Shown here one piece after another: positions 1-64,000 of a DNA stretch of 64,000 bases; within the stretch, counting starts at the first letter, position 1, and every line of letters begins with the position of its first letter. The notes beneath the pieces were generated by a model, which saw only the letters and a list, made by a program, of their open reading frames with translations, did no database searches and was not told the origin of the DNA. The stretch lies in NCBI GenBank assembly GCA_000146465.1, contig CP001948.1, one strand, 5' to 3'. Both the position numbers and the translations under genes were made by a program.

Positions 1-1427
<1,427 letters not shown>

Positions 1428-2271: not shown

Positions 2272-3042
2272 ATGGAAAGCAAAGGGTCGAATTACCACTG
2301 GGCCGAGTCCGACTTGTCTGGCTGGGCAAAGGATAAGATCAAGGAGACCTTAGAACATCGAGGCTACAAAGTGAATGAGATGGATGTGATGGTTAAGATA
2401 TGCCAAAGGATGAATACATTAGGGCTGGTGTATATGATAGGCTTTGAGTGCACGAAGGATGGAAAGTATTGTAGCATAAGAAACTTCTACTCTGTGTCTG
2501 AAAAGGCAGAAGGGATGGAAGACTTCGAATGGTTTCCCGGGTTTTTCTCGGAGCTTGAGGAAGAGGCAATACTCAAGTTTGGAAGCCGAGTTCTGGATAC
2601 TAATAGGCAAGTGGAGGAGAGAAAACCTTGTGTCAGGAGTATAGATGCTGAGGATGCAAAGACTGTAGACATAAGTTACAAGGCAAGCATTAACTGCGAG
2701 ATTAATGAGTTCAAGAATTTCATCCTATCCCAAGAATATATTTCCATGTGGAGTGGGTATAGGGCAACCTTTGATGGAGACGACATCCTAATTGACGGGG
2801 TAATCATCCGGAGACTCCGAGAAGAGAACGGATGTATCAGGATGGAGTGGAAACTCGAGAGATGGAGTCACTTCACAGAAGTTAAGATATCTCTCGAGTC
2901 TTTTCTTAATAGCTCAAAGGTAACAGTGAAACAAAAGGCTGTTCCAATCAAGGAAGAGAAAAGCATTAGAATGTGGTGGCATGAGAAAGTATTTGCCTCG
3001 ATTTCTACTTGCTTTGGATTTATCCTAAAGCCTCTAGAATAA
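2272..3042 (+). CDS. AHA1: Activator of Hsp90 ATPase (Aha1-like)
   Basis: The N-terminus NYHWAESDLSGWAKDKIKETL matches the Aha1 N-domain motif (NWHWTE.D.S.WS.DKLK). The C-terminal GVIIRRL...MEWKLERWSHFTEVKISLE resembles the AHSA1 domain. Confidence 0.6.
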   Translation: MESKGSNYHWAESDLSGWAKDKIKETLEHRGYKVNEMDVMVKICQRMNTLGLVYMIGFECTKDGKYCSIRNFYSVSEKAEGMEDFEWFPGFFSELEEEAILKFGSRVLDTNRQVEERKPCVRSIDAEDAKTVDISYKASINCEINEFKNFILSQEYISMWSGYRATFDGDDILIDGVIIRRLREENGCIRMEWKLERWSHFTEVKISLESFLNSSKVTVKQKAVPIKEEKSIRMWWHEKVFASISTCFGFILKPLE

Positions 3043-3092
3043 TCTGCAGGGCTTGACTACAATAAAACACAAGATTTCTAAATCGAGTATAA

Positions 3093-3524
3093 ATGTGGAC
3101 TCCTGCATCAACAGACATGGTGGCATGGAAAGATGGAAGGGGCGATTGTATCATAAGATGTTTTGGATGTGGCAATGTTGTCTGTAGAAGGGCAAGACGG
3201 GCCATGCTTCTATCCAATGTAAAGATCGAAGTATATTCGGCAAATGTTCCCACAGAATGTGTGAAGTGTGTAAGAGACGGTTACCTGGCATATTCATGTC
3301 AGTGTATTGTTGTTGATGCAGAATGTAGATGTTGCCGAATGATTCTAGGATATCATATTTTACATCCATGCAAGTTATGCGAAGAGATTGGAGGCATCAG
3401 ACATGCATGGATCTTTGATACAAGCTCTGTCATTTCCTCCATCAGAAGGGAAAGATCAGAGGCTTGCTTGAACGTGTCTGCAGCATGGAATGGGGAAGGA
3501 GACAACGAAGTGAAGATAAGATAG
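3093..3524 (+). CDS. Yippee/Mss4-like zinc-binding protein (tentative)
   Basis: The C-x2-C-x51-C-x2-C spacing (CFGC ... CRCCRMILGYH) matches Yippee-family geometry (CxxC...CxxCGxxLGWxYE). The ORF fills the gap between neighbouring genes. Confidence 0.4.
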   Translation: MWTPASTDMVAWKDGRGDCIIRCFGCGNVVCRRARRAMLLSNVKIEVYSANVPTECVKCVRDGYLAYSCQCIVVDAECRCCRMILGYHILHPCKLCEEIGGIRHAWIFDTSSVISSIRRERSEACLNVSAAWNGEGDNEVKIR

Positions 3525-13808: not shown

Positions 13809-16800
13809 ATGGACGAGAGCCGAGAGAGATACGAGGCAGAAATGACAAAGAAGCTGGATGCATTCAAAACAGCAAAGGAATGGTCTGACTTTATTTCCCT
13901 TCTGAGCTCACTGGACAACACGATTAGGAAGTTTTCCATACCAGAAATACCAAAAAAGAAGCTTTTGTTTAAGAGGCTAAACCAGTGTCTAAATCCGGTT
14001 TTGCCTGCAGGAATCCACAACAAGACCTTGGAAACATATTCTTTGGTGTTTGAGAAGATTTCCAGAGAGAACTTCCTCAAGGAGTTTGACTTTTTGACAC
14101 TGGGACTCTTCACGTTTTCGGCACATTGTAGAATTCTTGTGATAAGTTCTTTTCTGGACCTTATAGAGAAGTATATTGTTCCATTGGGGGCGGATGTGGA
14201 AAGATATTCCACAAGCATACTTATAGGGCTTCTTCCACCGATGGAGTTCGAATCTGGAGAACATTACAGCCGAGCACACCTCATAGTAACCGAGTTTAAG
14301 TCTCTGGTTTCTCTAGAAGTATTCTACTCTTCGATGTGGAGCATCCTTCTTAACGACGAAAGACTCAGAACATCTGTGGTGAATTATATGCTAAGCCTAG
14401 GCTGGGAAGAGCAGATATTGGGGAATGAAAGACTTGTGGTAAGAGCTCTGTGTGCAGGCCTTGGAAGCGAATCGACTTTAGTGGTAAGAAACTGTTTAGA
14501 TCTCCTGATTTTTGTATTTCCCGATAAGGATCACGTTTGTAAAGAGGATATGCTGGACGACCTTACGGAGGCGGTGATAAGGTTGTTTGTAAAAAGAGAC
14601 CTTTCTCTCAACAAGAGGATCTACGGATGGATGTGTATGGCAGATAACTTTAACGAGGCCGACGTGGCTTTGTTAAGTAGGGCTCTTAAAAGGTTTTTGG
14701 ACAGAAACAGCGCAGAAGACATCCAACTCTTCTTTAGGATCATGATGACGCTTCAAGACAAGGGAAAGCTCTGCGAGAAGATTATGGAGAACCTTCTTTT
14801 TGATGTTCTATCCTGTCTTCAAAAGCATCAAAGGAAGGGTGTGAAGGAAAATGTAGATTCAGATGCATTTGAAGAAAGACAGGGCGAGAGCATTGATGTT
14901 GAAAAGATTGCAAGGGCATTTTTAACCACAGATCTGGATTCGATATGGAAAATATTCTATCTCCGGCTGAGAAATGTCCTGAAGGAGGCCAAGGAAAAAA
15001 TGCTTTTGGACTTGAATCTAATTGACGACGAAGAGCTTAATGACAGTGTGATGAGAGAGGAGATATATAGTATGCATACGATGTCGTTAATTCTTAATGA
15101 GGGGCAAATAGTTCTATCAGAGGGGTCTTCTCTTAATAACTCTCAGGACCGGAGTTCAAACGAAAAGATTTCAGAAGCAGAGGAAAGAAGTTCTTTCGAA
15201 GAAATAAGCCCGAGGAAAGAAGAGATAGTAGCAAAAGCGTTAAAAGTCGAAAAAAGACACCGAAACAGAAGAGATTCAAGAAGGCCCACCCAGGTTCTTT
15301 CCTTCATAAGGTTTGCCGTGGAAAATTACTCTGTAGTGGACTCGGAAGTCTTCCACTACCATCTTCCGTTTCTGGTCCATTTAGTCCTTTCTGACTTTCT
15401 ACTGTTTGACGCTCAGATTGTTTTTTCGTTTCTGGATTTCAGTGCAAAGATAATGAAGTTTAAGGAAAAACAAGTTGAAGGAGGAAGGAATCTGCAGAAG
15501 CTGATTGGGAGATTTTATCTGGAGGAGGACACCAGCGTACTGGACGATGTCTCGTCAACAATACTTTACAGCATTTCGGACAAGATTGGAATAGCTATTG
15601 AAAGTAATGTTGAATTATCTCTTCCATTAATGTCCACTTTCATTAAGATCTATGGAGAGGATGTTTTCCCCAGTGGTTTTATACCGAATTATCATAACTT
15701 CATACTGAAGTCTTCCAACAGGCTTATAAAGGAGCATCTTGAAGTTTACAAGATAATTGATTGCACTCGACTTGATTCCCAAGCCATGTTCGATGTCCTA
15801 TGGACAAGATTCTGCCACGTGGAGAAAGACCTCTATCTGGAGAATCCAAAGGAGTCTGACACCAACAACGGAATGCAAAGGATATCCAGAAGAAACATAA
15901 CAAGTAGATTCTTTATTACAGGCAAGGGACCTCACCGCAGGGCATTGGTTGAACTTCTATGGAAGTATAACGCGATCTTTGGGCGGAGCTTTGAAAAGTT
16001 TCTTCTAAAAAGAATTGGAGAAGGAGAGGTAGAGGAAATTAGTTACTTTCTCCTTCTTAAGATTGAGAATTTTAAAGGGAACTTCGACTTCTTAGAGCTG
16101 TATTACATCATTAACTGCAAGCTTGATCCTGAAGATCTGGTGTTGAACACATTTCTTTGCTCTCTTACGTGTTTTGATGATCTATTTAAGTTCCTCTTGA
16201 AGAAACTTGAGGATTCAAACATACAGACAAGTGACACCTTCTTTTCGGAGTCCATTGATCTTAATCAGATAGTTGGAGTGTTCAAGTGCATCAAGAATCT
16301 TCTGGAGTATTCCAAAGGATTTAAGTCGATGCTTGTAGACTCTGAAGAGAAGTTGTATTCCAAAGTACTCCCTCTGGAGGAGCCGGTATCATCCAGAGAA
16401 ATCTTGTATAGAATACTAGTGCATTTGCTTGTGAACAGAAAAGAATACGATGGAAGGGATTTCGACTTGGAGATCATCAAGGTTCTCGAGGCTCTAATGA
16501 GAGGGGGGATTCTTGACAGCAGTGTGATGAATGTGGTAGATCTTTCCAAGATTGTGGATGTGGCAAAAGGATACAGAGGAGATCCTGCAATTGTGTTGGG
16601 AATTGCTCCGTTGATTAAGCATAGTGGAAACAGTATGGCAATCCAAGACCTGTGCAGTATACTTGATAGTCAATGCTTCTACTACCATGAATTCCTAGGG
16701 TTTGTCTTTTCATTAACCGATAGACTCCAAAGAAAGGTACTTTCAAACGTGCTCTTTTCACTAGAAAACCAGGACTTTGCACTCATGATAGTCTCGGAAA

Positions 16801-18881: not shown

Positions 18882-18947
18882 TGTATCCCAGTAGTGCCAG
18901 TGTTCTTTCAAAGGCTAATAAAAATTTTTAGCAAATGGCCCAGAGAA

Positions 18948-19251
18948 ATGGTAAGTCGGCTTTAGACTGGTTAATTTGTAGAGTAAAGGTACAGCCAGCT
19001 TTGGAAAAAAGAACAAGAGGAACACGGAAATGTGTAGAAGATGCGGAAGACAGAGTTATCACAAGCAGAAGAATTCATGCTCATCATGCGGATATCCTAC
19101 TCCGAAGATGAGAAACCCAGGGTCTATCAAGGCAAGACGTAGACGCACTGTCGGAACGGGCAGAATGAGATACATGAAAAGAGAACTGAGGGCTGCAAAG
19201 AACGGACATAGGGGAAATCCAATATTGAGGCCCCTCTGGAGTGGAAATTAA
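18948..19251 (+). CDS. RPL37: 60S ribosomal protein L37e, with exon 1 = ATG only (18948-18950), intron 18951-18981, and exon 2 18982-19251
   Basis: The ORF-track ORF starts MCRRCG, which lacks the conserved L37e N-terminus. The in-frame upstream sequence reads (stop)[22 protein letters not shown], matching [66 protein letters not shown] provides a 31-nt intron with a GTAAGT donor, a TTAAT branch site and a TAG acceptor. Confidence 0.8.
18951..18981 (+). other. Spliceosomal intron (31 nt) directly after the RPL37 start codon
   Basis: GTAAGT...TTAATTTGTAG. Removing it restores the conserved L37e N-terminus. Confidence 0.75.
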
Positions 19252-19318
19252 AGTGGTTTTCTTTCTGTTTTAATCAGTAATGCCTCATACATAAAAGACT
19301 TTGGGCCTAGACCCTGAA

Positions 19319-20092: not shown

Positions 20093-20163
20093 GGGCCCTT
20101 AGTATAATGGTAGAACACTTGGCTTCGGACCAAATAGTCCGGGTTCGAATCCCGGAGGGCTCG
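20093..20163 (+). tRNA. tRNA-Arg (anticodon TCG)
   Basis: GGGCCCT acceptor arm pairing with AGGGCTC, T-arm CCGGG-TTCGAAT-CCCGG, anticodon loop CTTCGGA (TCG), and a 4-nt variable loop. 71 nt, no CCA. Confidence 0.7.
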
Positions 20164-21013: not shown

Positions 21014-21086
21014 ACCCTGTTAGCTCAATAGGTAGAGTGTTGGACTTTTAATCCAACGGTTACGGGTTCGAGTCCCGTGCAGGGTG
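21014..21086 (+). tRNA. tRNA-Lys (anticodon TTT)
   Basis: Cloverleaf with acceptor ACCCTGT/GCAGGGT, D-arm GCTC-AATAGGTA-GAGT, anticodon stem TTGGA/TCCAA with loop CTTTTAA, and T-arm ACGGG-TTCGAGT-CCCGT. Confidence 0.8.
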
Positions 21087-21796: not shown

Positions 21797-21847
21797 GTGA
21801 TGGGCCTTGGCAACAGTCCCTATTAAATCCAAATGTCCAAAAGAAAA

Positions 21848-21965
21848 AGTTACAGCACCCGGGATTCCCGAGTGGTCTCCCGCCTCAGTACTATCCGGGC
21901 TCGCACAGGCTTAACTGCGGAGATCTGACGAGTTCCGGTGCTTTTCCGTGGATATGGCCGTAACT
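21848..21965 (-). rRNA. 5S ribosomal RNA
   Basis: The reverse complement reads AGTTACGGCCATATCCACGGAAAAGCACCGGAACTCGTCAGATCTCCGCAGTTAAGCCTGTGCGAGCCCGGATAGTACTGAGGCGGGAGACCACTCGGGAATCCCGGGTGCTGTAACT, followed by a T-run. This matches the 5S consensus (CGGCCATACC...GATCTGCGAAGTTAAGC...GTACT.G..GGGAGACC.C.GGGAATaCCGGGTGCTGTA). Helix I closes AGTTAC/GTAACT. Confidence 0.85.
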
Positions 21966-26709: not shown

Positions 26710-26781
26710 GGGGAGTTAGCTCAGCGGTAGAGCGCTTGCTTAGCATGCAAGAGGTCATGGGTTCAATCCCCATACTCTCCA
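26710..26781 (+). tRNA. tRNA-Ala (anticodon AGC)
   Basis: GGGGAGTTAGCTCAGCGGTAGAGCGCTTGCTTAGCATGCAAGAGGTCATGGGTTCAATCCCCATACTCTCCA. It has the diagnostic G3:U70 wobble pair of tRNA-Ala, anticodon loop TTAGCAT, and discriminator A. Confidence 0.9.
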
Positions 26782-26904: not shown

Positions 26905-29442
26905 ATGAGAATAAATCTGCTGGCGATGTTTATGATGCCCGCAAGCAATAGAAGGGTTTTTTACGTCAACTTAAAGGATGTTAAGTCGGGTGAGGATTTG
27001 CTGAGTCAGTTGTTTGAAAAAGCCCATCATCTTCCCGACGGGTCAAGCGAGTTGCTTGAAAAAGAAGACGGCTCTTCAACGCATTTGTCCAACCTAGCAC
27101 AAGAGGTACAGGCAAAGGAAGGGGCATCTGGGTCTACAGCCTCTTCTGGACAGAAGGCACCGGCACAGCAATCGGAAAGTGGTAAGAGTGCACAAAAGAA
27201 GCAGCAGAGTGGAGGCCAGGAAAGTAAGGCACAAGGGAGCGCTAAAAAGGAAGAACAGAAGCAGCAGAAGGAGGACAAGCAACAGAAGCAACAAAAGAAA
27301 GAGGAACAGAAGCAGCAGAAGGAAGAGAAGCAAAAGCAACAGAAACAGCAGAAGGAGGAGAAGCAAAAGCAGCAGAAGGATGATAAGCAGAAGGAGCAGA
27401 AGCAGCAAAAGAAGGAGGAACAGAAGCAGCAGAAGGAAGAGAAACAAAAGCAAAAAGAAGCGGGGAACCAGAAGGAAGAAAAGCAAAAACAAAAGGAACA
27501 GAAAAAGTCTGAAAAGGAAGATGGTAAGAAGGAAACAAAAAAAGCAGATAAAGAAAGCAAGGAGACCAAAACTGCCCAAGATAAAGGTTCTAAAGACAAG
27601 ACATCCACCCAGGGAAAGACAAGCACTGATGGTGGGGAAAAAGCCAGTACAGCGAAAGCAGAAGGAAAAAAAGCTTCTGAAAAGGCAACCAGCGTCAAAT
27701 CTTCGGATGCAGAGTCTAAAGGTGCTGAATCTAAAGACAAAGGGAGTGCCTCCAGTGCTCCTTCTTCAAATGCAAGTACCTCTGGAAGTGCTTCAATAGC
27801 TTCATCTTCGGGTAGTTCTTTATCTGGAGCGGCTTCCAGCAATGTCAGCAGTGCAGTGTCTTCAAGATTATCCTCGAGTGCCATCCAATCTTCTAGTGCT
27901 GGATATTCATCTTCAATACCTCTCTTGTCCATCATGTCATCTTCCATGCTATCATCGGCCATATCGTCTTCTGTGCTGTCATCGGCCATGTCATCTTCCA
28001 TGCTATCATCGGCCATATCGTCTTCTGTGCTGTCATCGGCTATGTTGTCTTCTATGTTATCGTCCTCGATGCCGGTGTCTTCCATGTTGTCTAGTGCATC
28101 CCATTCCTCCATAGCTGATGTCTTAAAGAAGGCATCGGAGATAAACAAGGTCAAAAACCTAAGTTCTGTAGATGTCAACGATATGCTGGGGAAGTGCCAA
28201 GAATGTGAAAGGGTTGATCAAGTACTTGTCTATAAGGAAGGAAGTCAGTACAGTGATTATTCTGGAAATATAAATTTCCAGGAAAAAGATGGTAAGTTAG
28301 TTGACAGTTCAGGCTTGTTTGTTGGAAAGGATTGCGGGTGCTCAAAGGAAGAAATACCTCAAATAGGAAAAATAACTGGAACAGGGCTATATCAAGATCA
28401 GAGTGTTAATAGCATGAGCTGCCAGAAACAAGCCAATGCAATTGATAAGTTATATTCTTCTGCCAGCAATATGGCGTTGAACTCCGGAGTATCTGGAAGC
28501 AAAACCGTTTCTGCCGGAGCGTCTCAAGCTGGTGGAGCTGCAAGCGGAGCATCTAAAGCTGCTAGTGCTTCTGCCGGAGTTTCTCAAGCTGGTGGAGCTG
28601 CAAGCGGAGCATCTAAAGCTGCTAGTGCTTCTGCAGGATCCTCACAAGCTGGTGGAGCTGGAGGTGGGGCATCTAAGGCTGCTAGTGCTTCTCAGGCTGG
28701 TAACTCTCAAGGGACTCAAAGCATTCAGCCAAGCTCTTTTCAGAGTGGTGCATCAGGGAATCTTGCACAAGAGACTGGATCCAAACCTCAAATATCATCT
28801 CTTCCTACCCAAAATAATGCCGAGGAAAGCCCTGGAGTTTCGGTAGCTCAATCTATTGAAAGTAGGCCTGAAGATTTCAGCTATATACCTCCTAAGATAT
28901 CTATAAAGGCGGTCAAGGTCAAATACGGGGATACATGTGGGGATAACTCTGGACTCGTTGTTAACACAACACTCACCCAGGAACTCCCTCCGGAAAAAAC
29001 AGTAACATTACCTCCAAAAACAGTTACAAAGACAGAAAAAGTGGAGCTTCCTCCCACTACTATCATAAAGGAGTTAACTATTATTGAACCACCATGCACA
29101 GTGGAAAAAGAGGAGGTAATTGTTCAGGGATCTGAAAACATAGATGAAGAAAGAACTGTTACTCACTCCACTACAGTTGTGGAATATAAAACAGTAAAAG
29201 TTACAGCCACACGAACGATATTGCAAACAACGTCTCCGAGAGACGTAGAGGTTCCGATTTCCACTATTAGCTTTGAAACCATCGATGGTATTAATGGAGA
29301 AAGGCCCCGGGAAGATATTACGACGATTAATACAACTATAGTAGTGGAAGAACCTGAAGATATAGAATGTGAGCAGGAGTGTGAATGCTATGAAGATAAT
29401 TGCGAAAATCCCTGTGATAGGATAAAATGTGTGTCTGGTTGA
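26905..29442 (+). CDS. Secreted-type repeat-rich protein (Lys/Glu/Gln repeats, Ser-rich tract, SQAGGAASGASKAASASAG repeats, Cys-rich C-terminus). Candidate polar-tube/spore-wall-like protein
   Basis: Hydrophobic N-terminus MRINLLAMFMMPAS. K-Q-Q-K-E-E repeats at about aa 100 to 200. A Ser-rich tract with SSMLSSAISSSVLSSAM repeats. Three 20-aa Ala/Gly/Ser repeats. The C-terminal CECYEDNCENPCDRIKC. It shares the motif VLVY..G....DY.G...F....KL.D..G.F.G...........GK.T.TG..Q with the gene at 31313. Confidence 0.6.
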   Translation: MRINLLAMFMMPASNRRVFYVNLKDVKSGEDLLSQLFEKAHHLPDGSSELLEKEDGSSTHLSNLAQEVQAKEGASGSTASSGQKAPAQQSESGKSAQKKQQSGGQESKAQGSAKKEEQKQQKEDKQQKQQKKEEQKQQKEEKQKQQKQQKEEKQKQQKDDKQKEQKQQKKEEQKQQKEEKQKQKEAGNQKEEKQKQKEQKKSEKEDGKKETKKADKESKETKTAQDKGSKDKTSTQGKTSTDGGEKASTAKAEGKKASEKATSVKSSDAESKGAESKDKGSASSAPSSNASTSGSASIASSSGSSLSGAASSNVSSAVSSRLSSSAIQSSSAGYSSSIPLLSIMSSSMLSSAISSSVLSSAMSSSMLSSAISSSVLSSAMLSSMLSSSMPVSSMLSSASHSSIADVLKKASEINKVKNLSSVDVNDMLGKCQECERVDQVLVYKEGSQYSDYSGNINFQEKDGKLVDSSGLFVGKDCGCSKEEIPQIGKITGTGLYQDQSVNSMSCQKQANAIDKLYSSASNMALNSGVSGSKTVSAGASQAGGAASGASKAASASAGVSQAGGAASGASKAASASAGSSQAGGAGGGASKAASASQAGNSQGTQSIQPSSFQSGASGNLAQETGSKPQISSLPTQNNAEESPGVSVAQSIESRPEDFSYIPPKISIKAVKVKYGDTCGDNSGLVVNTTLTQELPPEKTVTLPPKTVTKTEKVELPPTTIIKELTIIEPPCTVEKEEVIVQGSENIDEERTVTHSTTVVEYKTVKVTATRTILQTTSPRDVEVPISTISFETIDGINGERPREDITTINTTIVVEEPEDIECEQECECYEDNCENPCDRIKCVSG
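27240..27520 (+). repeat. Degenerate tandem coding repeats (AAG/CAG/GAA-rich) encoding K-Q-Q-K-E-E units
   Basis: Repeated gaagagaagcaaaagcaacagaaacagcagaaggag-type units are visible in the sequence. Confidence 0.6.
27943..28050 (+). repeat. Two tandem 54-nt direct repeats encoding SSMLSSAISSSVLSSAM
   Basis: tcatcttccatgctatcatcggccatatcgtcttctgtgctgtcatcggccatg occurs twice in tandem. Confidence 0.7.
28507..28690 (+). repeat. Three tandem 60-nt near-perfect direct repeats encoding SQAGGAASGASKAASASAGV
   Basis: tctcaagctggtggagctgcaagcggagcatctaaagctgctagtgcttctgccggagtt appears twice, followed by a third slightly diverged copy. Confidence 0.75.
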
Positions 29443-46267: not shown

Positions 46268-49075
46268 ATGTTTTACTTAAGTCGAGCTGTTGTGAACATG
46301 GATCTCTATATGAAAGTATTATGCAACTCGTCAGACATATACTTAGTGCAATCTTCGTCGATAGCTATTTATACAATTAAGCATGGAAAGCTAATATATG
46401 TAAGGAAGACAGAATTTTTTGATGTGATCAAGTCGGCAGTCATTATTGGAAACGAGCTTCTTGTAGTCTTCAACGGATACATTGTATTTCTGGACAGATT
46501 TCTTGATGAAAGGACCCGGTACAGACTTGGAAGAAGCTCCGTAGACTATAGACACGTTGGAGCATACATTGCATGTGGAAAATCCAGTATCTGTCTTACA
46601 TCTTTTTTTGGGAACATGACTTTCTGTACCCTTGGAAGTGGCTTGGAGAGTCCTATCGAATACTCTGCTGACAAGAGTGTAATTATCGACTTCAAGAGCG
46701 TGGAAGGGACAGGACAGTACATTTCATTAGAAAAGAACCCAAAGGGAACATTTGCCAAGATTTATGAGCATAGTCCGGAAATTATAGAAGTATTAAGGGA
46801 AATAAGTGTTCCTGGAGGATACATGATTGTTCCATTAAAAGATAGATTTGCAGTATTTTCAACGAATAGGGTATTCCTTTTTAGAAGAAATGAAGAAGTT
46901 GAAATCTATAAGGTTTCGAAAGGACGAGTTGGAAGCTTAGACTTGGCCCTTGATGAGGGAAATGGAGAATGCAGATGCTCAGATACTTTGGAAGAGAAGA
47001 TGTTTACATGTTATACGTCATATTGTGATGAAAAATGTTTGTTGACGTTGATTGTGGATGAAGATGGAGAGCTTTTCAATCTTAATACCACCTATGGTCT
47101 AAAGATGGAACATGTAGGAAAGATCAATCCTTCAAAGGATATAGCAATCCATTCTTCTGGACTCTTAGTTTCAATAGGCTATAATTCCGATAACTGTATA
47201 TATTATATAGAGAGAAAAGAGGGGAAAATTAGTCTTAAGCTGGTTGCCATGATTGAGACGATAAGAAGATTCAATACTTCTACAATGGTTTTCGATGGAG
47301 TATATCATACCTATGTCTCTGATGGAAAGTACATAGGAGAGATAGTTGAGAAAACACCTATTTCTTTTCGGAGCGAATTGAACCTTTTTGAAAATGGGAA
47401 GGAAAAGATAGTAAGAGGTTTGTTCAATTGTGGAGCGTTTGTATGTGCCCAATACGAAGATGAAGTCCATTGCCTCTACTTAGAAGGAGAAGAGTTAACA
47501 AGTATATATAAGTTTGTGTCTGATGACGAGATAATTGGATATTTCAGGTTGGGAAGGATTGACTTTTACATGTCTGGAGGGTTAGTTAGGGCATACGAGA
47601 TGAATGGGGAAGGAGAGTTAGACACAAAGGAATATAAAATCGATTACACCTCATTTTCATCAAACTCTCATTGTATATTTCTTGGACAGAGAAATAAAAT
47701 AATCAAGCTAGGATCTGAGGGGCTAGAAACTATTGAAATAGAGTTTGCTATCAAAGAAATGGAATCTGACGAGAGATATTTATTCATACTGACTGGAAAA
47801 AGAGTCCTTAGAGTATACAGTATAGATGGTAGGAAATTTGTATTTATCCAGTCGTTCCGTTTTGATGTGATATTTCTGTCGGTGTTTGATGGATACCTAT
47901 ATACGATCGGATCGGATATATATAAGTTTCAAATAAAAGAGGATGGATCTCTCTCTCTTCCTATAAGAATGAAAGAGGCAGGAAGGCCCATAGGGAAGAA
48001 GGAAAGATTGATAATATTTGATTCGCAAGTTATGGATCTAAAGTACGAAGGAATTTTAAACATTGATGGATGGAAGAGTATCTTTTCAAGAGATATGATA
48101 TTGGCTTCAAATGAGCATGGGATAAAAGTTTATGAGTACAGGAAACATAAAGTAGTCCTTGTCGATGAGATTAGCAAAGAAAAAGATTGTAAAATTTTGG
48201 GTAAGGAGCAGATGTATATCGATAACAACCTAGATGGATTTGTAATAAGAAGATTTAACGGATCTTCCGTAATAGAAGGACATGGCGAGGCCATTGGATT
48301 TTCCTCTTCTGAATACCAAATTGTTTCCATGCGCAGGATCATACCAGGTCTTGAAAAACCCGAAAGTAAATGCTTCTTAAAGATATACAAAGAAGGAAGT
48401 TTCATGTACGATTTTGAAACACCTTACAGGATTGATATAACTTACACAAGCAGAGGAGAAGTTTATTGTAGTGAGGAAAACAGACTTTATTGCTATGAAG
48501 TAGGAGTGAAGTCATTGCTCAGAAAGTTTAAGTTAAAGTTTCCATCAAAAATAAGCGGAATATGCTCTGACAGGGACAAACTATTTGTCGGAACAGAAAA
48601 GGACTCTGTATTCATGGTAAAGGACAGAAGAATTGTTTGTAGAGATAAGTTTCCAAGACGAGTGGTAGCCTTGGAGAGAATGAATGATGGGAATTTAGTG
48701 GTTGGAGATTGGGCAGGAAATATAATTGTCATGGAGGTTAAGGACGATTCCTTAATCTCGGGAGCATCAATATTCGTCAATGACATGGTTGTTCAATTTA
48801 TTTCTCAGGACAAAGTCTTTGGAATATGCATGAGCGGAAAAGTAGTCGAGATAGTGGAGATTGGAGAGGAGTTGTTTGAGTTTCTTGAGACTATCGGGGA
48901 GAAGATAACTGAGGCCTTAAATAGGCCATTTTTTCAGGCTTTTAGGAGAAATAGATTTATCAACTCGGAGTACATCAAAGAGTTCAGTAAACTGAGTGAG
49001 CAGCAAATCAAGGAAGTACTGGAAAAAACGAATGTAGATATCGAAAAGATATTTGAAGTGGTTAATGCAATATAA
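46268..49075 (+). CDS. CPSF-A/DDB1/SF3b130 (Rse1) family triple beta-propeller protein, reduced to 935 aa
   Basis: The N-terminal strand pattern YLVQSSSIAIYTIKHGKLIYVRK matches the family. The C-terminal EYIKEFSKLSEQQIKEVLEKTNVDIEKIFEVVNAI matches the CPSF_A C-terminal helical motif. The subtype is unresolved. Confidence 0.5.
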   Translation: MFYLSRAVVNMDLYMKVLCNSSDIYLVQSSSIAIYTIKHGKLIYVRKTEFFDVIKSAVIIGNELLVVFNGYIVFLDRFLDERTRYRLGRSSVDYRHVGAYIACGKSSICLTSFFGNMTFCTLGSGLESPIEYSADKSVIIDFKSVEGTGQYISLEKNPKGTFAKIYEHSPEIIEVLREISVPGGYMIVPLKDRFAVFSTNRVFLFRRNEEVEIYKVSKGRVGSLDLALDEGNGECRCSDTLEEKMFTCYTSYCDEKCLLTLIVDEDGELFNLNTTYGLKMEHVGKINPSKDIAIHSSGLLVSIGYNSDNCIYYIERKEGKISLKLVAMIETIRRFNTSTMVFDGVYHTYVSDGKYIGEIVEKTPISFRSELNLFENGKEKIVRGLFNCGAFVCAQYEDEVHCLYLEGEELTSIYKFVSDDEIIGYFRLGRIDFYMSGGLVRAYEMNGEGELDTKEYKIDYTSFSSNSHCIFLGQRNKIIKLGSEGLETIEIEFAIKEMESDERYLFILTGKRVLRVYSIDGRKFVFIQSFRFDVIFLSVFDGYLYTIGSDIYKFQIKEDGSLSLPIRMKEAGRPIGKKERLIIFDSQVMDLKYEGILNIDGWKSIFSRDMILASNEHGIKVYEYRKHKVVLVDEISKEKDCKILGKEQMYIDNNLDGFVIRRFNGSSVIEGHGEAIGFSSSEYQIVSMRRIIPGLEKPESKCFLKIYKEGSFMYDFETPYRIDITYTSRGEVYCSEENRLYCYEVGVKSLLRKFKLKFPSKISGICSDRDKLFVGTEKDSVFMVKDRRIVCRDKFPRRVVALERMNDGNLVVGDWAGNIIVMEVKDDSLISGASIFVNDMVVQFISQDKVFGICMSGKVVEIVEIGEELFEFLETIGEKITEALNRPFFQAFRRNRFINSEYIKEFSKLSEQQIKEVLEKTNVDIEKIFEVVNAI

Positions 49076-53356: not shown

Positions 53357-54155
53357 ATGAAGTGTAGAAAGGTTTGTTCAAAAACTCTCTTATCTATTTC
53401 TCTAACACCTGTTGGAAGAACCATAGACAACTTTACTAGGGACATGAGCCTGGTTAAAAGTAATCCGACACTTCTACAAACATTCTATGACTATATTTCG
53501 ATAAAGTACGGAGTTAAATGTGAGACAGGAATCGACTTGGTGGAAAGAGTGGTGATGGCCGATGGTTTCAAGCAGTAAGTGGAAAAGACCTAATTTTAGT
53601 CTTCTAGATGCGAAGGATCCTACTAATGAACTTATAAATAAGAAGATTCTTCTATATAGATGGATTAGTCCAGAACACTTGGAACTTAAGAATACAGAGA
53701 GAAGTGTGCTGGAAGATATCTCTAGGGAGTTTAGAGGTATCACCTCCCTGCAAACACCGACTGAAAAGATAACTCATATGATGGGGATAATGGAAAAGTT
53801 GTGTGATGTAGTTGGAAGAACCGAAGGCCAGGACATAATCCTACCATCTATCATATATTGCATTATAAAGTCGTCTCTTCCCAATATATATTTGGAAGTT
53901 AGGTTCATGGCTCTTTATAGAAGGAAGAGCATGGAAAAGTGCAAAGAAAGATGCAATCACGGATTTAGTATCGATGCCAGCTGTGAGTGTTTCTCCAGCA
54001 GGCCATACGATGAGAAGGAGGTAAACTATTATTTAACATCAATGCAGGCGGCAGTAGAATTCATAAGAAAAATGGAATTTTATGATCTAAAAATCAGTGA
54101 AGGAGAATTCTATGAAAACATGATGGATGCGGTAAAGCTCGTAAAAGATATTTGA
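53357..54155 (+). CDS. VPS9-domain protein (Rab5-family GEF), with exon 1 ending at 53574, a 25-nt intron 53575-53599, and exon 2 from 53600 to 54155
   Basis: ORF 53300..53578 (frame 2) and ORF 53562..54155 (frame 0) overlap at CAGTAAGTGG. Removing GTAAGTGGAAAAGACCTAATTTTAG (GTAAGT donor, CTAAT branch site, TTTTAG acceptor) joins ...VVMADGFK-H-LLDAKDPTNELINKK... in frame. The downstream part carries the VPS9 signature (ILPSIIYCIIKSSLPNIYLEVRFM...NYYLTSMQAAVEFI). The first ATG in exon 1 is at 53357, since ORF-track 53300 is GTG. Confidence 0.65.
53575..53599 (+). other. Spliceosomal intron (25 nt) in the VPS9-domain gene
   Basis: GTAAGTGGAAAAGACCTAATTTTAG. Removing it restores the frame between the two ORFs. 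Confidence 0.65.
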
Positions 54156-54190: not shown

Positions 54191-54652
54191 ATGAAGGAGA
54201 GAATACTTAATGGGCTACACAAACTTTTTATCACCAATATTCCAAGGAAGGCAAGAAGACAATTGGTTTATGAACTTCTCACACAAGTGTCAAAAATTGG
54301 CCACCTCTATTACAACCAAGATAGGGGATATTGCTTTGTAGACTATGAGACATATGAGGAATTAGAATACACTTATAACGTTCTTCGGGGTGTTAAGCTG
54401 TATGGAAAAAGACTGTACTTCAGTAAAGTCGAAAAACAAGTGAGAATTGTTGTCAGGAATATAGGACAGGAAGTAGATGGGGTTTTCCTCTGGGACGTTT
54501 TCAGTAAATTCGGGCCGTGCCATATTGAGATGAATGAGGGCGGACTAGGTGTTGTTATATATAGACGAGAAGACTCTGCTATTAAAGCTGTAGAAGTGGT
54601 GAACGGAAAAGTTATAGGAGGCTCAGAAGTATCTGTGGAAATTGATAAATAG
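54191..54652 (+). CDS. Two-RRM splicing factor, SF3b4/Hsh49-like
   Basis: RRM1 LFITNIPRKA...GYCFVDYETYEELEYTYNVLRGVKLYGKRLYFSKVEK resembles SF3b4 (...NMIKLYGKPIRVNKA). RRM2 IVVRNIGQEVDGVFLWDVFSKFG. ORF-track 54152 is TTG, and the first ATG is at 54191. Confidence 0.5.
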   Translation: MKERILNGLHKLFITNIPRKARRQLVYELLTQVSKIGHLYYNQDRGYCFVDYETYEELEYTYNVLRGVKLYGKRLYFSKVEKQVRIVVRNIGQEVDGVFLWDVFSKFGPCHIEMNEGGLGVVIYRREDSAIKAVEVVNGKVIGGSEVSVEIDK

Positions 54653-57030: not shown

Positions 57031-57234
57031 AGGCTAAAAATATTCCTTTTTTTTATGGTGGAAATTCGCCTTGGCGTTGTATCCCATTGGGCATAACCTC
57101 TATTCATAAATTAACAAGAGCTTCATACTGCTAGAGTATCTATCGAAGATGGATGTAAAGCTCTATACAGCTTGGGATAAGGTTATTTTATTTAACATAA
57201 AATCATCAAATGTCCGGCAATATATCTAATAAAT

Positions 57235-59928: not shown

Positions 59929-60066
59929 ATGCGGGTTTTACTAGTAATATTGATGTTAGCCACTGCAATTGTCCTCACAGTAACCCTGACAATTATACTG
60001 GAAAATATGGACAGGAAGGGAGATGATGATCCCTCGGATTCATTTGATGGCAATTCTTCGGGCTAG
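59929..60066 (+). CDS. Short unannotated ORF (45 aa) encoding a single-TM peptide paralogous to the N-terminus of the 59406 gene
   Basis: atgcgggttttactagtaatattgatgttagccactgcaattgtcctcacagtaaccctgacaattatactggaaaatatggacaggaag... translates to MRVLLVILMLATAIVLTVTLTIILENMDRKGDDDPSDSFDGNSSG*. Its TM segment resembles VMIATILLIVLIIVASEMLWQKR of the upstream gene. It falls below the ORF-track length cutoff. Confidence 0.3.
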   Translation: MRVLLVILMLATAIVLTVTLTIILENMDRKGDDDPSDSFDGNSSG

Positions 60067-60278
60067 AGTTAAAGACAAGAAGAATTTTAAGGAAGCTAAG
60101 CCGATCTTGCATCAACCAGACTGATAGAGAAGGATAGTTACATTGGAGCTTTACAGTTTTCAAGATTCCAATCCTAATTAATGCAGGGAATAAGAAGACC
60201 AAAAGTTCTAATAATAAATCTATCTCGAAGTTAATTCAAAAGCTTTTCAGAAACACCAAAATAAAATCATAATCCAAG

Positions 60279-60785
60279 CTAGAACAGAATTATCTCGTTT
60301 TTCTTCAGAAGATCCATTACATCATCTAAGGGAGCAACAAAGAAGTCTCCTTTAAACATTTCCACCATTTCCCCATCGATTACTATTCCATGGATATCGG
60401 CACAGCAGTAAAATCCAACAAATTCGTGGGTTTGATAGAACTTTTTCTCTGTAACATATATATCTCTTTTTTTTAACAAAGAAATATATTTCTCGTAAAA
60501 AACGGCCTCTCTCGGAGACAAGAACGATCTGTCTTCATATAGGTTTGTAACCAACTTTTTCAATCTAACTTTCACGTACTCCTTGGCAAAAAACTTTATT
60601 CTCTCCAATTCCAACTCGTATATATTCTTCAGTATCGATTTGTCTAATGATTTCATGCCTTCAGTCCTTCTTGAAACTGCATCGAGGAAGTAGTTCATTA
60701 CCTGGGAAGCATAAGGAAGTAGCCTTTTCGCCGACTTTTCATTCTGGTATGCAAGAATAAGATCATTTAACGTAGGAGAGCGCAT
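60279..60785 (-). CDS. GINS complex subunit (Sld5/GINS4-like)
   Basis: LNDLILAYQNEKSAKRLLPYASQVMNYFLDAV resembles the GINS A-domain motif (L..AW.NEk.APELL.y). The C-terminal B-domain ...FVAPLDDVMDLLKKNEIILF is present. ORF-track 60821 is TTG, and the first ATG is at 60785. Confidence 0.5.
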   Translation of the reverse strand: MRSPTLNDLILAYQNEKSAKRLLPYASQVMNYFLDAVSRRTEGMKSLDKSILKNIYELELERIKFFAKEYVKVRLKKLVTNLYEDRSFLSPREAVFYEKYISLLKKRDIYVTEKKFYQTHEFVGFYCCADIHGIVIDGEMVEMFKGDFFVAPLDDVMDLLKKNEIILF

Positions 60786-60829
60786 GGAAAGGGCTTGGAA
60801 ATCAAAATAGTTTGTCTCCAACCCTCAGA

Positions 60830-61786
60830 ATGATCCTTGTGACACACGATGGAAAATTTCACCTGGATGAGGTGATGGCTACAGCCGTACTGCTTAAGAT
60901 ATATCCGGATTCCGAAATAATCAGGACGAGAAATATGAGCGTTATGCGGAGTGGAGATATAGTTTACGATGTTGGAGGTACATTTAACCCCGAGACCAAT
61001 AGATATGACCATCATCAGGAGTCATTCAATGAAACCTTTAGCTCGAAATATAAGATAAAACTAAGTAGCTCAGGATTAATCTATAAATATTATGGCGAAA
61101 AGCTTCTAGAGAAATACGGAGTTACCAAAACAGATGAGCACTTCCAAAGACTACTAGAAGAGATTTATGCAACTTACTTTTTATCTGCAGATGCAATAGA
61201 CAACGGATACGAAATTTTCGGTGAAATAGTCCCAAGATCCCTCTCACATATTGTTGAATCATTCAATGTCTTGAACTTTTCAGGAGGCTCAAACAACGAG
61301 CAGGACAGAAGATTTCTTGAAGCAGTACGATTCGTTTCCATGGATTTAGATAATTTCATGCATACTATAATCAACGGATGGATGCCAAACTATAAATATC
61401 TGAGTGAGTTAATTAGCAAAGTTGATGGAGACATTCTGTGTGTCGACAGATATTGTTTCATAGACGTAATTCCTGAGATAGAAAGAAAGTACAAAAAAGA
61501 TATCAACTTTGTACTAAAAAAGGGAGAAAGTTCTGTGAGTATACTGGCTGTTCCAAAAAAAAGAAAACATTTCGAGTCGAAAATTCCTTTAAAGAAAGAA
61601 TGGAGGGGCCTTTCTGGAGGAAAACTGGATGCCATCTCTGGAATTGAAGGTTGCAATTTTGTTCATTTGTCTGGATTTGTAGGGTCCAATAAAACTATTG
61701 AAGGCGCCATCGAAATGTGCAAAGAATCTATCAAAGCTTATCTTAAGGAAATCAAAAATGCTGATAATCTGGACAAATATTTATAA
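60830..61786 (+). CDS. MYG1/UPF0160 family metal-dependent hydrolase
   Basis: THDGKFHLDEVMATAVLL...IIRTR.......DIVYDVGGTFNPETNRYDHHQESFNETFSSKYKIKLSSSGLIYKYYGEKLL aligns closely to MYG1 (THdG.FHcDEalA...L......aeIvRTRd......DIVvDVGG.yDp..hRYDHHQrsF.eT......tKLSSAGLiY.hfG). Confidence 0.85.
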   Translation: MILVTHDGKFHLDEVMATAVLLKIYPDSEIIRTRNMSVMRSGDIVYDVGGTFNPETNRYDHHQESFNETFSSKYKIKLSSSGLIYKYYGEKLLEKYGVTKTDEHFQRLLEEIYATYFLSADAIDNGYEIFGEIVPRSLSHIVESFNVLNFSGGSNNEQDRRFLEAVRFVSMDLDNFMHTIINGWMPNYKYLSELISKVDGDILCVDRYCFIDVIPEIERKYKKDINFVLKKGESSVSILAVPKKRKHFESKIPLKKEWRGLSGGKLDAISGIEGCNFVHLSGFVGSNKTIEGAIEMCKESIKAYLKEIKNADNLDKYL

Positions 61787-61887
61787 AAGCTTATGATAAC
61801 TAACATCAAACGATTTAATATAAAAATTGTGGAAATTATAAATTTATAATAAATATATAACAACGTCCTTGTATTTAGAAGCATTAA

Positions 61888-62394
61888 ATGGAAAACTTAA
61901 ACGATGAGGATATCAAACTCAAAAGTTCCCTAGAAAACACATTTAAAGAAATAGATCAATTTTTTAGTGATGCTGGGATTATCTTTTCTAAATCGGAACA
62001 CTTTAATCTTGTGAAAGAAATTAATGCCACAATGAATAGCTTTCTTGGCCCTCGAAAAGAAATTTATAATAGGAACGTTCAAACTAATGCTAAAAACTTT
62101 TTGGAGAGTGCTAAAGAAGTTGCAAAGGCATTTAAAGAAGTTTTCAATTCTTTAAAAAAAGAATCCATCGAAAGTTTCAAAGAGGCTTACAAAAAATATA
62201 ACAGAAAAGTAGAAAATTCTAAAAATATTTATAGTGAATTGGAAAAATGTCTTTCTGAGTATGGAAGTCATACCTCCAGTGCCTGTTCGGGAGTTTCTTC
62301 TAGTATTCCAGGGAAAGAAACTTCATGCAAACATTTAAAATCAGAAAGAGCTAATAGGGCTTTAAGTCAAGCTTTGAGCTTTAAAAAAAAATAA
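61888..62394 (+). CDS. Hypothetical helical/coiled-coil protein. Likely the N-terminal part of a larger gene continuing in ORF 62400..63935
   Basis: ATG start. It ends ...ALSQALSFKKK* inside an A9 homopolymer. Confidence 0.4.
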   Translation: MENLNDEDIKLKSSLENTFKEIDQFFSDAGIIFSKSEHFNLVKEINATMNSFLGPRKEIYNRNVQTNAKNFLESAKEVAKAFKEVFNSLKKESIESFKEAYKKYNRKVENSKNIYSELEKCLSEYGSHTSSACSGVSSSIPGKETSCKHLKSERANRALSQALSFKKK

Positions 62395-62399
62395 TTCCA

Positions 62400-63935
62400 G
62401 TGAACAGGAATTTATTAGAAAAAGTAGAAGGATTAGAAAATTCAATCAATCAATCTATCAAAAATATAGAAAAAAAACTATCCCATATTGAGAGTGTTCG
62501 AAAGTGTCTAGAGAAGGCGAAGAGTGAAAGTTCGAGAGATTTTAACATTTTAGAAATCTTGAAAAATAAGATGTCTGCCTTGGATACAGGTAAAATGGAA
62601 TCCTACCTAAAGTGGAAAAAGGATCAAGTTCAATTATATGATGACATTCTAAAAGAAAATCAAGAGAAAATTGAAGTTTTCTTAAACAACTATAGAGAAT
62701 ATTTGAGACATAAAAAAGAGAAAAGAACTTCTTCTGTTGTCAGGGAGGCTTTTGGAGTAGTAGAAAGCTTTCAGGACGTAAATAGCTCCTACAATAGATT
62801 TCTCTCCCTTCTAAAAGACCATTGGAAGTTTTGGAAAGATATCTTTCGCCATCTAAGAAACAATGATGATGGAAACTGGTTATCAGAAGTAACAGGAAAT
62901 GAAGAAAGAATCTCACCGACAAGCGATATCGAGACTTTTTTAGATACCCCTGTCTCCCAAGACTTGCTTTTTGATCCTCAAAAGTTGGAAGAATTGTTCT
63001 CTGGAGAAGAAAGCCAAGTTCTGGAACCCATCCAATCAGCTATCGAATTTCTTAATCAAATTCAACATTACGATAAAGACACCACAGAGATTCGTGAATA
63101 TGCTCAGTCTATTATTCGTACCGATATCTACAGAGTTTTCGTATTGAAATATTTATTAAGGGAAAGCCCAGTACCGGAATTCTCTTTGGAATCTTCTCAG
63201 CAGGATGCCCTCGTCTCTGAGATCTTAGAAAGTGATTATTTCCTCTTTTTTTGCCTTCTTGTGTGTTCTGGATTGATTGCTCTTCAAAGTATCTTTAGAA
63301 AGACTAGTACATCCAAAGAGACAATGAATGCCTTGGGAAAGATATCATATGCAGTATCTATTCTTGGCCCAATTCTACATGGGATGTGGATACTATCAAA
63401 TGAAAATTATAGTGAAGGGATTATTAAAGTAATAAGCAGTAACTGGAATGTGATTGCAAGTATGGCTCCTATGTTTCTTGTTCTTAGAGATATTAAATAC
63501 ATAAAGAATGGAGAACTAATGACATCAGAAGGGGCAACAGCCATAGGAGGCCATGGCGTAATTGTGGCCATGAGCATGATCATGATGTGTGCACAAACAC
63601 TTGGAAAGAAACATGAGGGAGAATATAGTAGACAAACAATGGTATTTATGGCTGGAAACATCATAATGACAACAATGTATGGTGCGAAGTTATTTGGGCC
63701 ATGGACTAAGAGCAGGAATCATTTTATTATACTCGGATACATTGTGTTTGCACTTATACTTTTCTTAATGGTTATGATGAGTGAAAAGAAAAAGATAAAG
63801 AATCGAACTAATGACAAAACAGAATGGATGGGGGTGCTCCAGTGGATTATAATATGCACGTTTCTTATACTTGGACTACAAAAACCTGAGTTTCACTGTC
63901 TTCAGTATGCTAAAAATGAAATTATAGTTTCATGA
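62400..63935 (+). CDS. Coiled-coil region followed by a 6-TM membrane domain, hypothetical. The ORF-track start is GTG and the first ATG is at 62571. Probably the C-terminal continuation of 61888..62394
   Basis: The reading frame stays open and protein-like (LEKVEGLENSINQSIKNIEKKLSHIESVRKCLEKAKSES) from 62400, immediately after the upstream ORF's stop. The C-terminal half has 6 hydrophobic helices. Confidence 0.4.
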   Translation: MNRNLLEKVEGLENSINQSIKNIEKKLSHIESVRKCLEKAKSESSRDFNILEILKNKMSALDTGKMESYLKWKKDQVQLYDDILKENQEKIEVFLNNYREYLRHKKEKRTSSVVREAFGVVESFQDVNSSYNRFLSLLKDHWKFWKDIFRHLRNNDDGNWLSEVTGNEERISPTSDIETFLDTPVSQDLLFDPQKLEELFSGEESQVLEPIQSAIEFLNQIQHYDKDTTEIREYAQSIIRTDIYRVFVLKYLLRESPVPEFSLESSQQDALVSEILESDYFLFFCLLVCSGLIALQSIFRKTSTSKETMNALGKISYAVSILGPILHGMWILSNENYSEGIIKVISSNWNVIASMAPMFLVLRDIKYIKNGELMTSEGATAIGGHGVIVAMSMIMMCAQTLGKKHEGEYSRQTMVFMAGNIIMTTMYGAKLFGPWTKSRNHFIILGYIVFALILFLMVMMSEKKKIKNRTNDKTEWMGVLQWIIICTFLILGLQKPEFHCLQYAKNEIIVS

Positions 63936-64000
63936 AAGGTACTTTATAAATAGCCATTAAATAAATTTCAAAACCAAATACCATAATATAGACAATAGAA

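Follow-up and report, generated by a model that had tools for sequence, protein, structure and literature searches.

The intron of the RPL37 gene of Encephalitozoon cuniculi was reportedly first described in the 2001 genome paper. The E. cuniculi ribosomal protein (RP) genes with reported introns are L19, L27a, L37a, L37, L39, and S26, and Octosporea bayeri carries a homologue of the L37 intron (PMC2784321). Short, 5'-biased RP introns of microsporidia are of the GT-AG type, with a strict GTAAGT 5' splice site and a branch site near the 3' AG; they have a published length range of 22 to 76 nt, can lie right after the initiator ATG, and bring in a premature stop if retained (PMC6349667, PMC3629993, PMC2784321). 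By RNA-seq, every E. cuniculi intron annotated up to then was confirmed to be spliced, and these introns cover the same length range (PMC3629993). A U1 snRNA with an ACUUACC 5' motif is present in all four Encephalitozoon species, including E. intestinalis (PMC5499648).

The window analyzed here is a 64,000-nt stretch of one strand. Around its eL37 gene, 6,304 of 6,304 nt are identical to positions 159701 to 166004 of CM119895.1 (GCA_051312775.1), which places the window on E. intestinalis chromosome VII. The spliced 90-aa product of the gene matches, residue for residue, the entries ADM11904.1 and UTX45660.1 (60S ribosomal protein L37 of E. intestinalis ATCC 50506), whereas the unspliced 73-aa open reading frame (ORF) had no entry in the protein collection searched. 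The neighboring genes are Eint_071400 and Eint_071420, and the eL37 gene (RPL37) between them is therefore presumably Eint_071410. Deposited gene models in four Encephalitozoon genomes have spans that exceed the need of 90 codons (Table 1); thus, the intron is already annotated in all four. GenBank has carried the E. intestinalis model, with its ATG-only exon and 31-nt intron, from the time of the 2010 genome. The feature is already known, and its value as a discovery is small: the RPL37 intron is ordinary, since it is publicly annotated and its E. cuniculi counterpart was reported in 2001.

Plain ORF calling does not recover this gene structure. The sole eL37 ORF in the ORF list is 73 codons long (19030 to 19251, beginning MCRRCG) and shares its frame with the start of exon 2. 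The in-frame TAG that ends the intron shuts this frame on the 5' side; therefore, unless splicing occurs, the ORF cannot reach back to any ATG further upstream. Read without splicing, the frame from the ATG at 18948 gives MVSRL and stops after five codons. Joining that ATG to position 18982 yields a 90-aa protein that ends at the TAA stop. Exon 2 opens with AGT AAA GGT ACA GCC AGC TTT GGA AAA AAG AAC AAG AGG AAC ACG GAA, which encodes 16 residues. Retention of the intron breaks the frame, and its excision gives back a conserved eL37 identical to ADM11904.1. The original prediction had described an ATG-only first exon followed by a 31-nt GTAAGT...TAG intron overlooked by the ORF track, and both the sequence and the ORF list agree with it, as does the 304-nt span of the deposited model. 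The spliced protein start that it proposed gives the deposited product exactly. Its start coordinate, 18935, needs correction: the ATG there is out of frame and lies 13 nt ahead of the initiator, which is the ATG at 18948.

Table 1. Features of the RPL37 5' end in the window and of L37 genes in related genomes
Feature	Source	Position	Strand	Span (nt)	Product (aa)	Intron (nt)	Basis or remark
AAATTT-like promoter signal AAAAATTTTT, microsporidian RP-gene type	Window	18920-18929	+				Sequence, kept in all orthologues; putative function after PMC2803860
Out-of-frame ATG	Window	18935-18937	+				Start of the 58-aa ORF 18935-19111 in the ORF list
CCC-like motif (within GGCCC)	Window	18939-18941	+				Sequence, GGCCCAGAGAA directly before ATG; kept in 6/6 intron-bearing orthologues
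Exon 1 of eL37 (RPL37), initiator ATG only	Window	18948-18950	+				Sequence; matches start of deposited Eint_071410/ADM11904.1 model
Spliceosomal GT-AG intron, phase 0, GTAAGTCGGCTTTAGACTGGTTAATTTGTAG	Window	18951-18981	+			31	Sequence, motif scan, orthologue alignment
5' splice site GTAAGT	Window	18951-18956	+				Sequence
Branch-point-like TTAATTT	Window	18971-18977	+				Motif alone
3' splice site TAG	Window	18979-18981	+				Sequence
Exon 2 of eL37, codons 2-90 plus TAA stop (19249-19251)	Window	18982-19251	+				Sequence, Pfam, structure alignment
eL37 model	E. intestinalis			304	90	31	Intron implied by span
eL37 model	E. cuniculi			304	90	31	Intron implied by span
eL37 model	E. romaleae			304	90	31	Intron implied by span
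eL37 model	E. hellem			302	90	29	Intron implied by span
Intronless L37	L008 (Logan SRR29713748; Encephalitozoon/Ordospora-like relative)	3001-3273					
Intronless L37	L014 (Binucleata daphniae)	501-806					
L37 annotated short	L007 (O. colligata GCA_052575955.1)	2926-3228			75		Start-codon intron missed
L37 annotated short	L015 (V. ceranae GCA_000988165.1)	About 399-710			69		Start-codon intron missed
L37 called short	L010 (Logan SRR21633403)	2919-3222			73		Start-codon intron missed; spliced start MSNGT...

The 5' end of the E. intestinalis eL37 gene is almost certainly composed, judging from its sequence, of a one-codon exon 1, a 31-nt U2-type GT-AG phase-0 intron, and exon 2. By every defining sequence property tested, the intron can be classed as a microsporidian short spliceosomal intron, from which it shows no difference of substance: the GT-AG borders, the strict GTAAGT, the branch motif near the 3' AG, the site right after the initiator ATG, the length, and the premature stop on retention are all alike. 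Its closest described counterpart, in the E. cuniculi RPL37 gene (CAD25678.1/NP_586074.1, chromosome VII, AL590447), likewise follows the ATG directly and is also 31 nt long; its 5' splice site and its TAATTTGTAG 3' end agree with those of E. intestinalis, as does the AAATTT/CCC promoter string. The two introns are identical at 27 of 31 bases. The E. cuniculi sequence and that of E. intestinalis differ by four substitutions at intron positions 19 to 22 (CTGGTTAAT against CTCAATAAT), which take in the final three of the variable interior bases and the base that opens the branch motif. The deposited E. intestinalis gene (ADM11904.1/Eint_071410) is identical to the window gene, with no difference. 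Yeast introns are about ten times longer and have the branch site UACUAAC. Start-codon-proximal introns also occur in RP genes of Saccharomyces cerevisiae and of cryptomonad nucleomorphs, a comparison drawn previously (PMC2784321). The original prediction had called an ATG-only exon 1 characteristic of microsporidian RP genes, and the literature, in which L37 is listed (PMC2784321), bears this out.

These features suggest how the gene would be expressed. Transcription would start a few nucleotides before the ATG at 18948, past the AAATTT-like and CCC-like signals. U1 snRNA could then pair with G/GUAAGU at the 5' splice site (slashes mark exon-intron borders), and U2 with the UUAAUUU branch region, where the motif predicts a branch A about 7 nt from the 3' AG. 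Splicing would join AUG to AGU to give the mRNA of the 90-aa eL37. Unspliced RNA would not yield full-length eL37, because the frame from the ATG ends after five codons. The case for splicing in E. intestinalis is drawn from conservation and from the E. cuniculi RNA-seq. Every contig found to code for exactly this 90-aa protein was genomic, and none was a spliced-transcript contig.

How efficiently the intron is removed bears on the alternative that survives best, namely, that the intron is real but mostly retained, acting as a brake on eL37 output, and that the retained mRNA might give a truncated eL37 from the AUG at 19030. Of 37 E. cuniculi introns, 30 are spliced out of less than 50% of transcripts, and 22 out of less than 20% (PMC3629993); therefore, many eL37 transcripts may keep the intron. 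The position of AUG 19030, as the next in-frame AUG after the very short MVSRL reading frame, would also suit such a use. However, the same E. cuniculi study found no strong evidence for regulatory splicing of ribosomal genes (PMC3629993), and residues 2 to 17 are strongly conserved, which argues that full-length eL37 is the functional form. The expression of ECU07_1410, which by synteny is probably the E. cuniculi L37 orthologue, was about 1300 to 2500 FPKM (PMC3629993 supplement). We consider retention as the predominant outcome unlikely; this reading refines the explanation by a spliced start-codon intron and does not replace it. A more elaborate version, to which we give somewhat less credence again, would combine inefficient splicing with use of the retained mRNA, either as an eL37 throttle or for an eL37 starting at Met18, with the conserved upstream ATG/CCC block adding control. 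If true, intron retention would have a functional role in a genome that ranks among the most reduced known for eukaryotes.

That exon 2 begins well upstream of MCRRCG is supported at the protein level. The Pfam Ribosomal_L37e profile (PF01907; cut-off, 27.6 bits) scored the 73-aa ORF at 45.9 bits, and addition of the 17 extra N-terminal residues raised the score to 65.1 bits. In the spliced protein, residues 2 to 46 align with profile positions 1 to 45, whereas the match of the 73-aa ORF begins only at position 17. The claim that the segment before MCRRCG is the L37e N-terminus, in frame and directly after a TAG, thus agrees with the sequence, and the Pfam match now runs from the first profile position. 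The zinc ribbon cysteines of the spliced protein (C19-R-R-C22 and C34-S-S-C37) align with those in the eL37 chains of solved ribosomes. Against the E. cuniculi orthologue, which is a chain of ribosome structure 7qep (7qep_O7), the alignment was end to end (E = 8e-54), and identity was 92% (83 of 90 residues). The spliced protein also aligned over its full length with the eL37 of V. necatrix (6rm3) and of P. locustae (6zu5), and an (M)SKGT(A/S)... N-terminus is common to 7qep, 6rm3, and 6zu5. On these alignments, the E. intestinalis protein is classed as a member of the ribosomal protein eL37 family.

The locus was aligned for four Encephalitozoon species (E. cuniculi, E. hellem, E. intestinalis, and E. 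romaleae), for Ordospora colligata, and for two relatives represented by public read assemblies. Six of the aligned loci carry the intron, and one (L008, SRR29713748) is intronless. ATG/GTAAGT is unchanged in all six intron-bearing sequences, and TAATTTGTAG/AG is unchanged in five of the six, with TAACTTGTAG in the sixth. The intron interior varies by substitutions and by 1- to 2-nt indels, and the length is 29, 30, or 31 nt in Encephalitozoon and Ordospora, so that it is free of any multiple-of-three constraint. Every orthologous intron contains an in-frame stop, and all of the unspliced readings end. Across codons 2 to 17, comparison of the window with the six other sequences gave, in sum, 31 synonymous and 4 nonsynonymous codon changes, and 34 of 37 nucleotide differences fell at third positions. 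This pattern indicates that codons 2 to 17 are under clear purifying selection.

Relatives in which the intron is absent serve as natural controls for the exon junction. On a 79-kb genomic contig from SRR29713748, the eL37 gene has no intron and begins ATG AGT AAG GGA..., with a syntenic Dopey gene upstream. In this relative and in B. daphniae, the ATG is followed directly by the Ser2 codon, and the N-terminus is the same. Introns at the identical site also occur in more distant relatives, with a length of 19 nt in Tubulinosema ratisbonensis (L013) and 30 nt in Vairimorpha ceranae. The presence of same-site introns in distant relatives, together with precisely intronless genes, points to an intron that is old within microsporidia and that would have been precisely lost in some lineages.

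These comparisons bear directly on the possibility that no splicing takes place, in which case the gene would be the 73-aa ORF at 19030 to 19251, starting at MCRRCG, and the upstream L37e similarity would be a decaying remnant. The 73-aa ORF is alone in the ORF track, it scores above the Pfam cut-off, and it keeps all four zinc-binding cysteines; short proteins of this kind also appear in public annotations, such as those of O. colligata (75 aa) and V. ceranae (69 aa). Against this stand the excess of synonymous changes in codons 2 to 17 and splice signals that stay constant beside an intron interior that has drifted in both sequence and length, and the same 17 residues are contiguous in the intronless relatives. 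The curated records of E. intestinalis, E. cuniculi, E. hellem, and E. romaleae all carry the spliced model. The short annotations themselves have ATG/GTAAGT...AG/AGTAAAGG just upstream of each shortened L37 and are therefore annotation misses. Splicing in O. colligata, V. ceranae, and L010 restores the full L37 N-terminus. We regard the absence of splicing as highly improbable. Prokaryote-style ORF calling shortens microsporidian RP genes, and GCA_052575955.1 and GCA_000988165.1 have both missed this same intron.

The preferred model, a spliced start-codon intron, is also favored by the statistics of its signals. By itself, GTAAGT is uninformative, with 17 copies in the 64-kb window against 21 expected. 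For the composite motif GTAAGT-N5-35-TAATTT-N0-6-AG, the window has two copies where 0.10 would be expected, and at both of them removal restores a conserved reading frame. The donor of the RPL37 intron, G/GTAAGT at 18950 to 18956, is invariant in all six aligned intron-bearing orthologues and also in Tubulinosema and V. ceranae. As RNA, it is complementary at every base to ACUUACC, the 5' motif of the Encephalitozoon U1 snRNA (PMC5499648). The branch and 3' region of the intron reads TTAATTTGTAG at 18971 to 18981. An ATG/GTAAGT...YTAATTT..AG pattern, with 0.1 expected per 64 kb, is rare enough to serve as a reliable intron flag.

Other candidate signals in the window were rejected. As an intron signal, ATGGTAAGT occurs twice against 0.39 expected, and the second copy, at 28289, lies within a long ORF and has no branch motif. 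A scan with the relaxed pattern GT[AG][AT]G[TA]...NTAAYT...AG returned candidates at 15046 to 15101 (+), 57100 to 57128 (-), and 19236 to 19290 (-). These have non-canonical donors, are located within a long ORF or between genes, and are absent from the public gene models; for these reasons, all three were treated as chance matches.

Upstream of the initiator, the promoter signals are of the kind described for microsporidian RP genes. In E. cuniculi, CCC-like motifs lie immediately upstream of coding starts, and 5' untranslated regions (5'UTRs) are shorter than 7 nt (PMC2803860). The E. cuniculi L37 upstream string is given there in Additional file 3 as "AAAAAATTTTAGCAGATGGCCCAGAGAA (intron)" (PMC2803860). 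The same string is found in the aligned E. cuniculi locus, and it is one or two bases off that of the window. At the CCC position, the intronless L008 has GGG, which has been described as an alternative to the CCC-like motif (PMC2803860).

The ATG at 18935 falls in a conserved block, 18935 to 18947 (GATGGCCCAGAGAA), which includes the CCC-like promoter motif. If 5'UTRs shorter than 7 nt (PMC2803860) are valid here, this ATG would lie outside the mRNA, and it is probably part of the promoter, upstream of the transcription start. Were it transcribed, it would disturb eL37 translation. Most orthologues have an ATG at or near this position; E. romaleae, however, has ATT, which fits the ATG being dispensable, and in E. 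hellem, O. colligata, and L010 the distance to the true ATG is not the same. Translation from this ATG, as the listed 58-aa ORF that it opens or through a longer first exon, is scarcely credible, since its frame differs from that of eL37, it reads MAQRNE and then a stop when the GTAAGT donor is used, and it lies upstream of the CCC-like motif past which E. cuniculi transcripts begin.

A second intron of the same type as that of RPL37 was found in the window. It is 25 nt long (GTAAGTGGAAAAGACCTAATTTTAG; 53575 to 53599, +) and interrupts a VPS9-domain gene (53357 to 54155); its branch and 3' motif is CTAATTTTAG. A plain ORF call cuts this gene into pieces of 73 aa and 197 aa. The spliced 257-aa product is ADM11927.2 (Eint_071680), and the intron is already annotated. 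Among the four RP genes in the window, one (RPL37) has such an intron, and the uS5, ubiquitin-eL40, and uL22 genes are uninterrupted ORFs.

The original prediction had gone on to propose that the genome retains a working spliceosome, in keeping with SF3b4-like and SF3b130-like genes in the window. The window by itself is insufficient for this claim, which fits the published RNA-seq results for E. cuniculi and the presence of U1 snRNA in all four Encephalitozoon species (PMC3629993, PMC5499648). More direct support for an active splicing system than that from the putative spliceosome genes comes from the 25-nt intron of the VPS9-domain gene. An Rfam scan of the whole window returned no snRNA above thresholds, and its matches were a 5S rRNA gene and three tRNA genes only.

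The two putative spliceosome genes were assigned at the level of protein family. The SF3b4-like ORF (54191 to 54652, +; 153 aa) encodes a protein with two RRM_1 domains, deposited as "putative RNA-binding protein." Its best match among solved structures was yeast PABP (5.8e-12), followed by human SF3B4 (2.7e-7, over both RRMs) and yeast Hsh49 (1e-3). The assignment as a two-RRM protein stood, and the specific SF3b4 label was neither established nor refuted. The SF3b130-like ORF (46268 to 49075, +; 935 aa) gave weak matches to CPSF_A (26.7 bits; cut-off, 27) and to Beta-prop_RSE1_1st (E = 0.011), and by sequence it matched no solved structure. Its homologues (six matches) were found only in Encephalitozoon-like genomes, under the names "hypothetical" or "DNA damage-binding protein 1"; the protein is therefore highly diverged. 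Membership in the RSE1/DDB1/CPSF1 propeller family is weakly supported, and here, too, the specific label (SF3b130) was neither established nor refuted.

Several further features of the window were recorded. Within 8 kb downstream of RPL37 lie the 5S rRNA gene (21847 to 21965, -; 95.6 bits) and the three tRNA genes, all on the plus strand (20093 to 20163, 21014 to 21086, and 26710 to 26781). Over the final 4 kb (60001 to 64000), the GC content drops to 0.35. The 208-kb chromosome VII record extends about 460 bp past the end of the window, so this segment represents the approach to the subtelomere.
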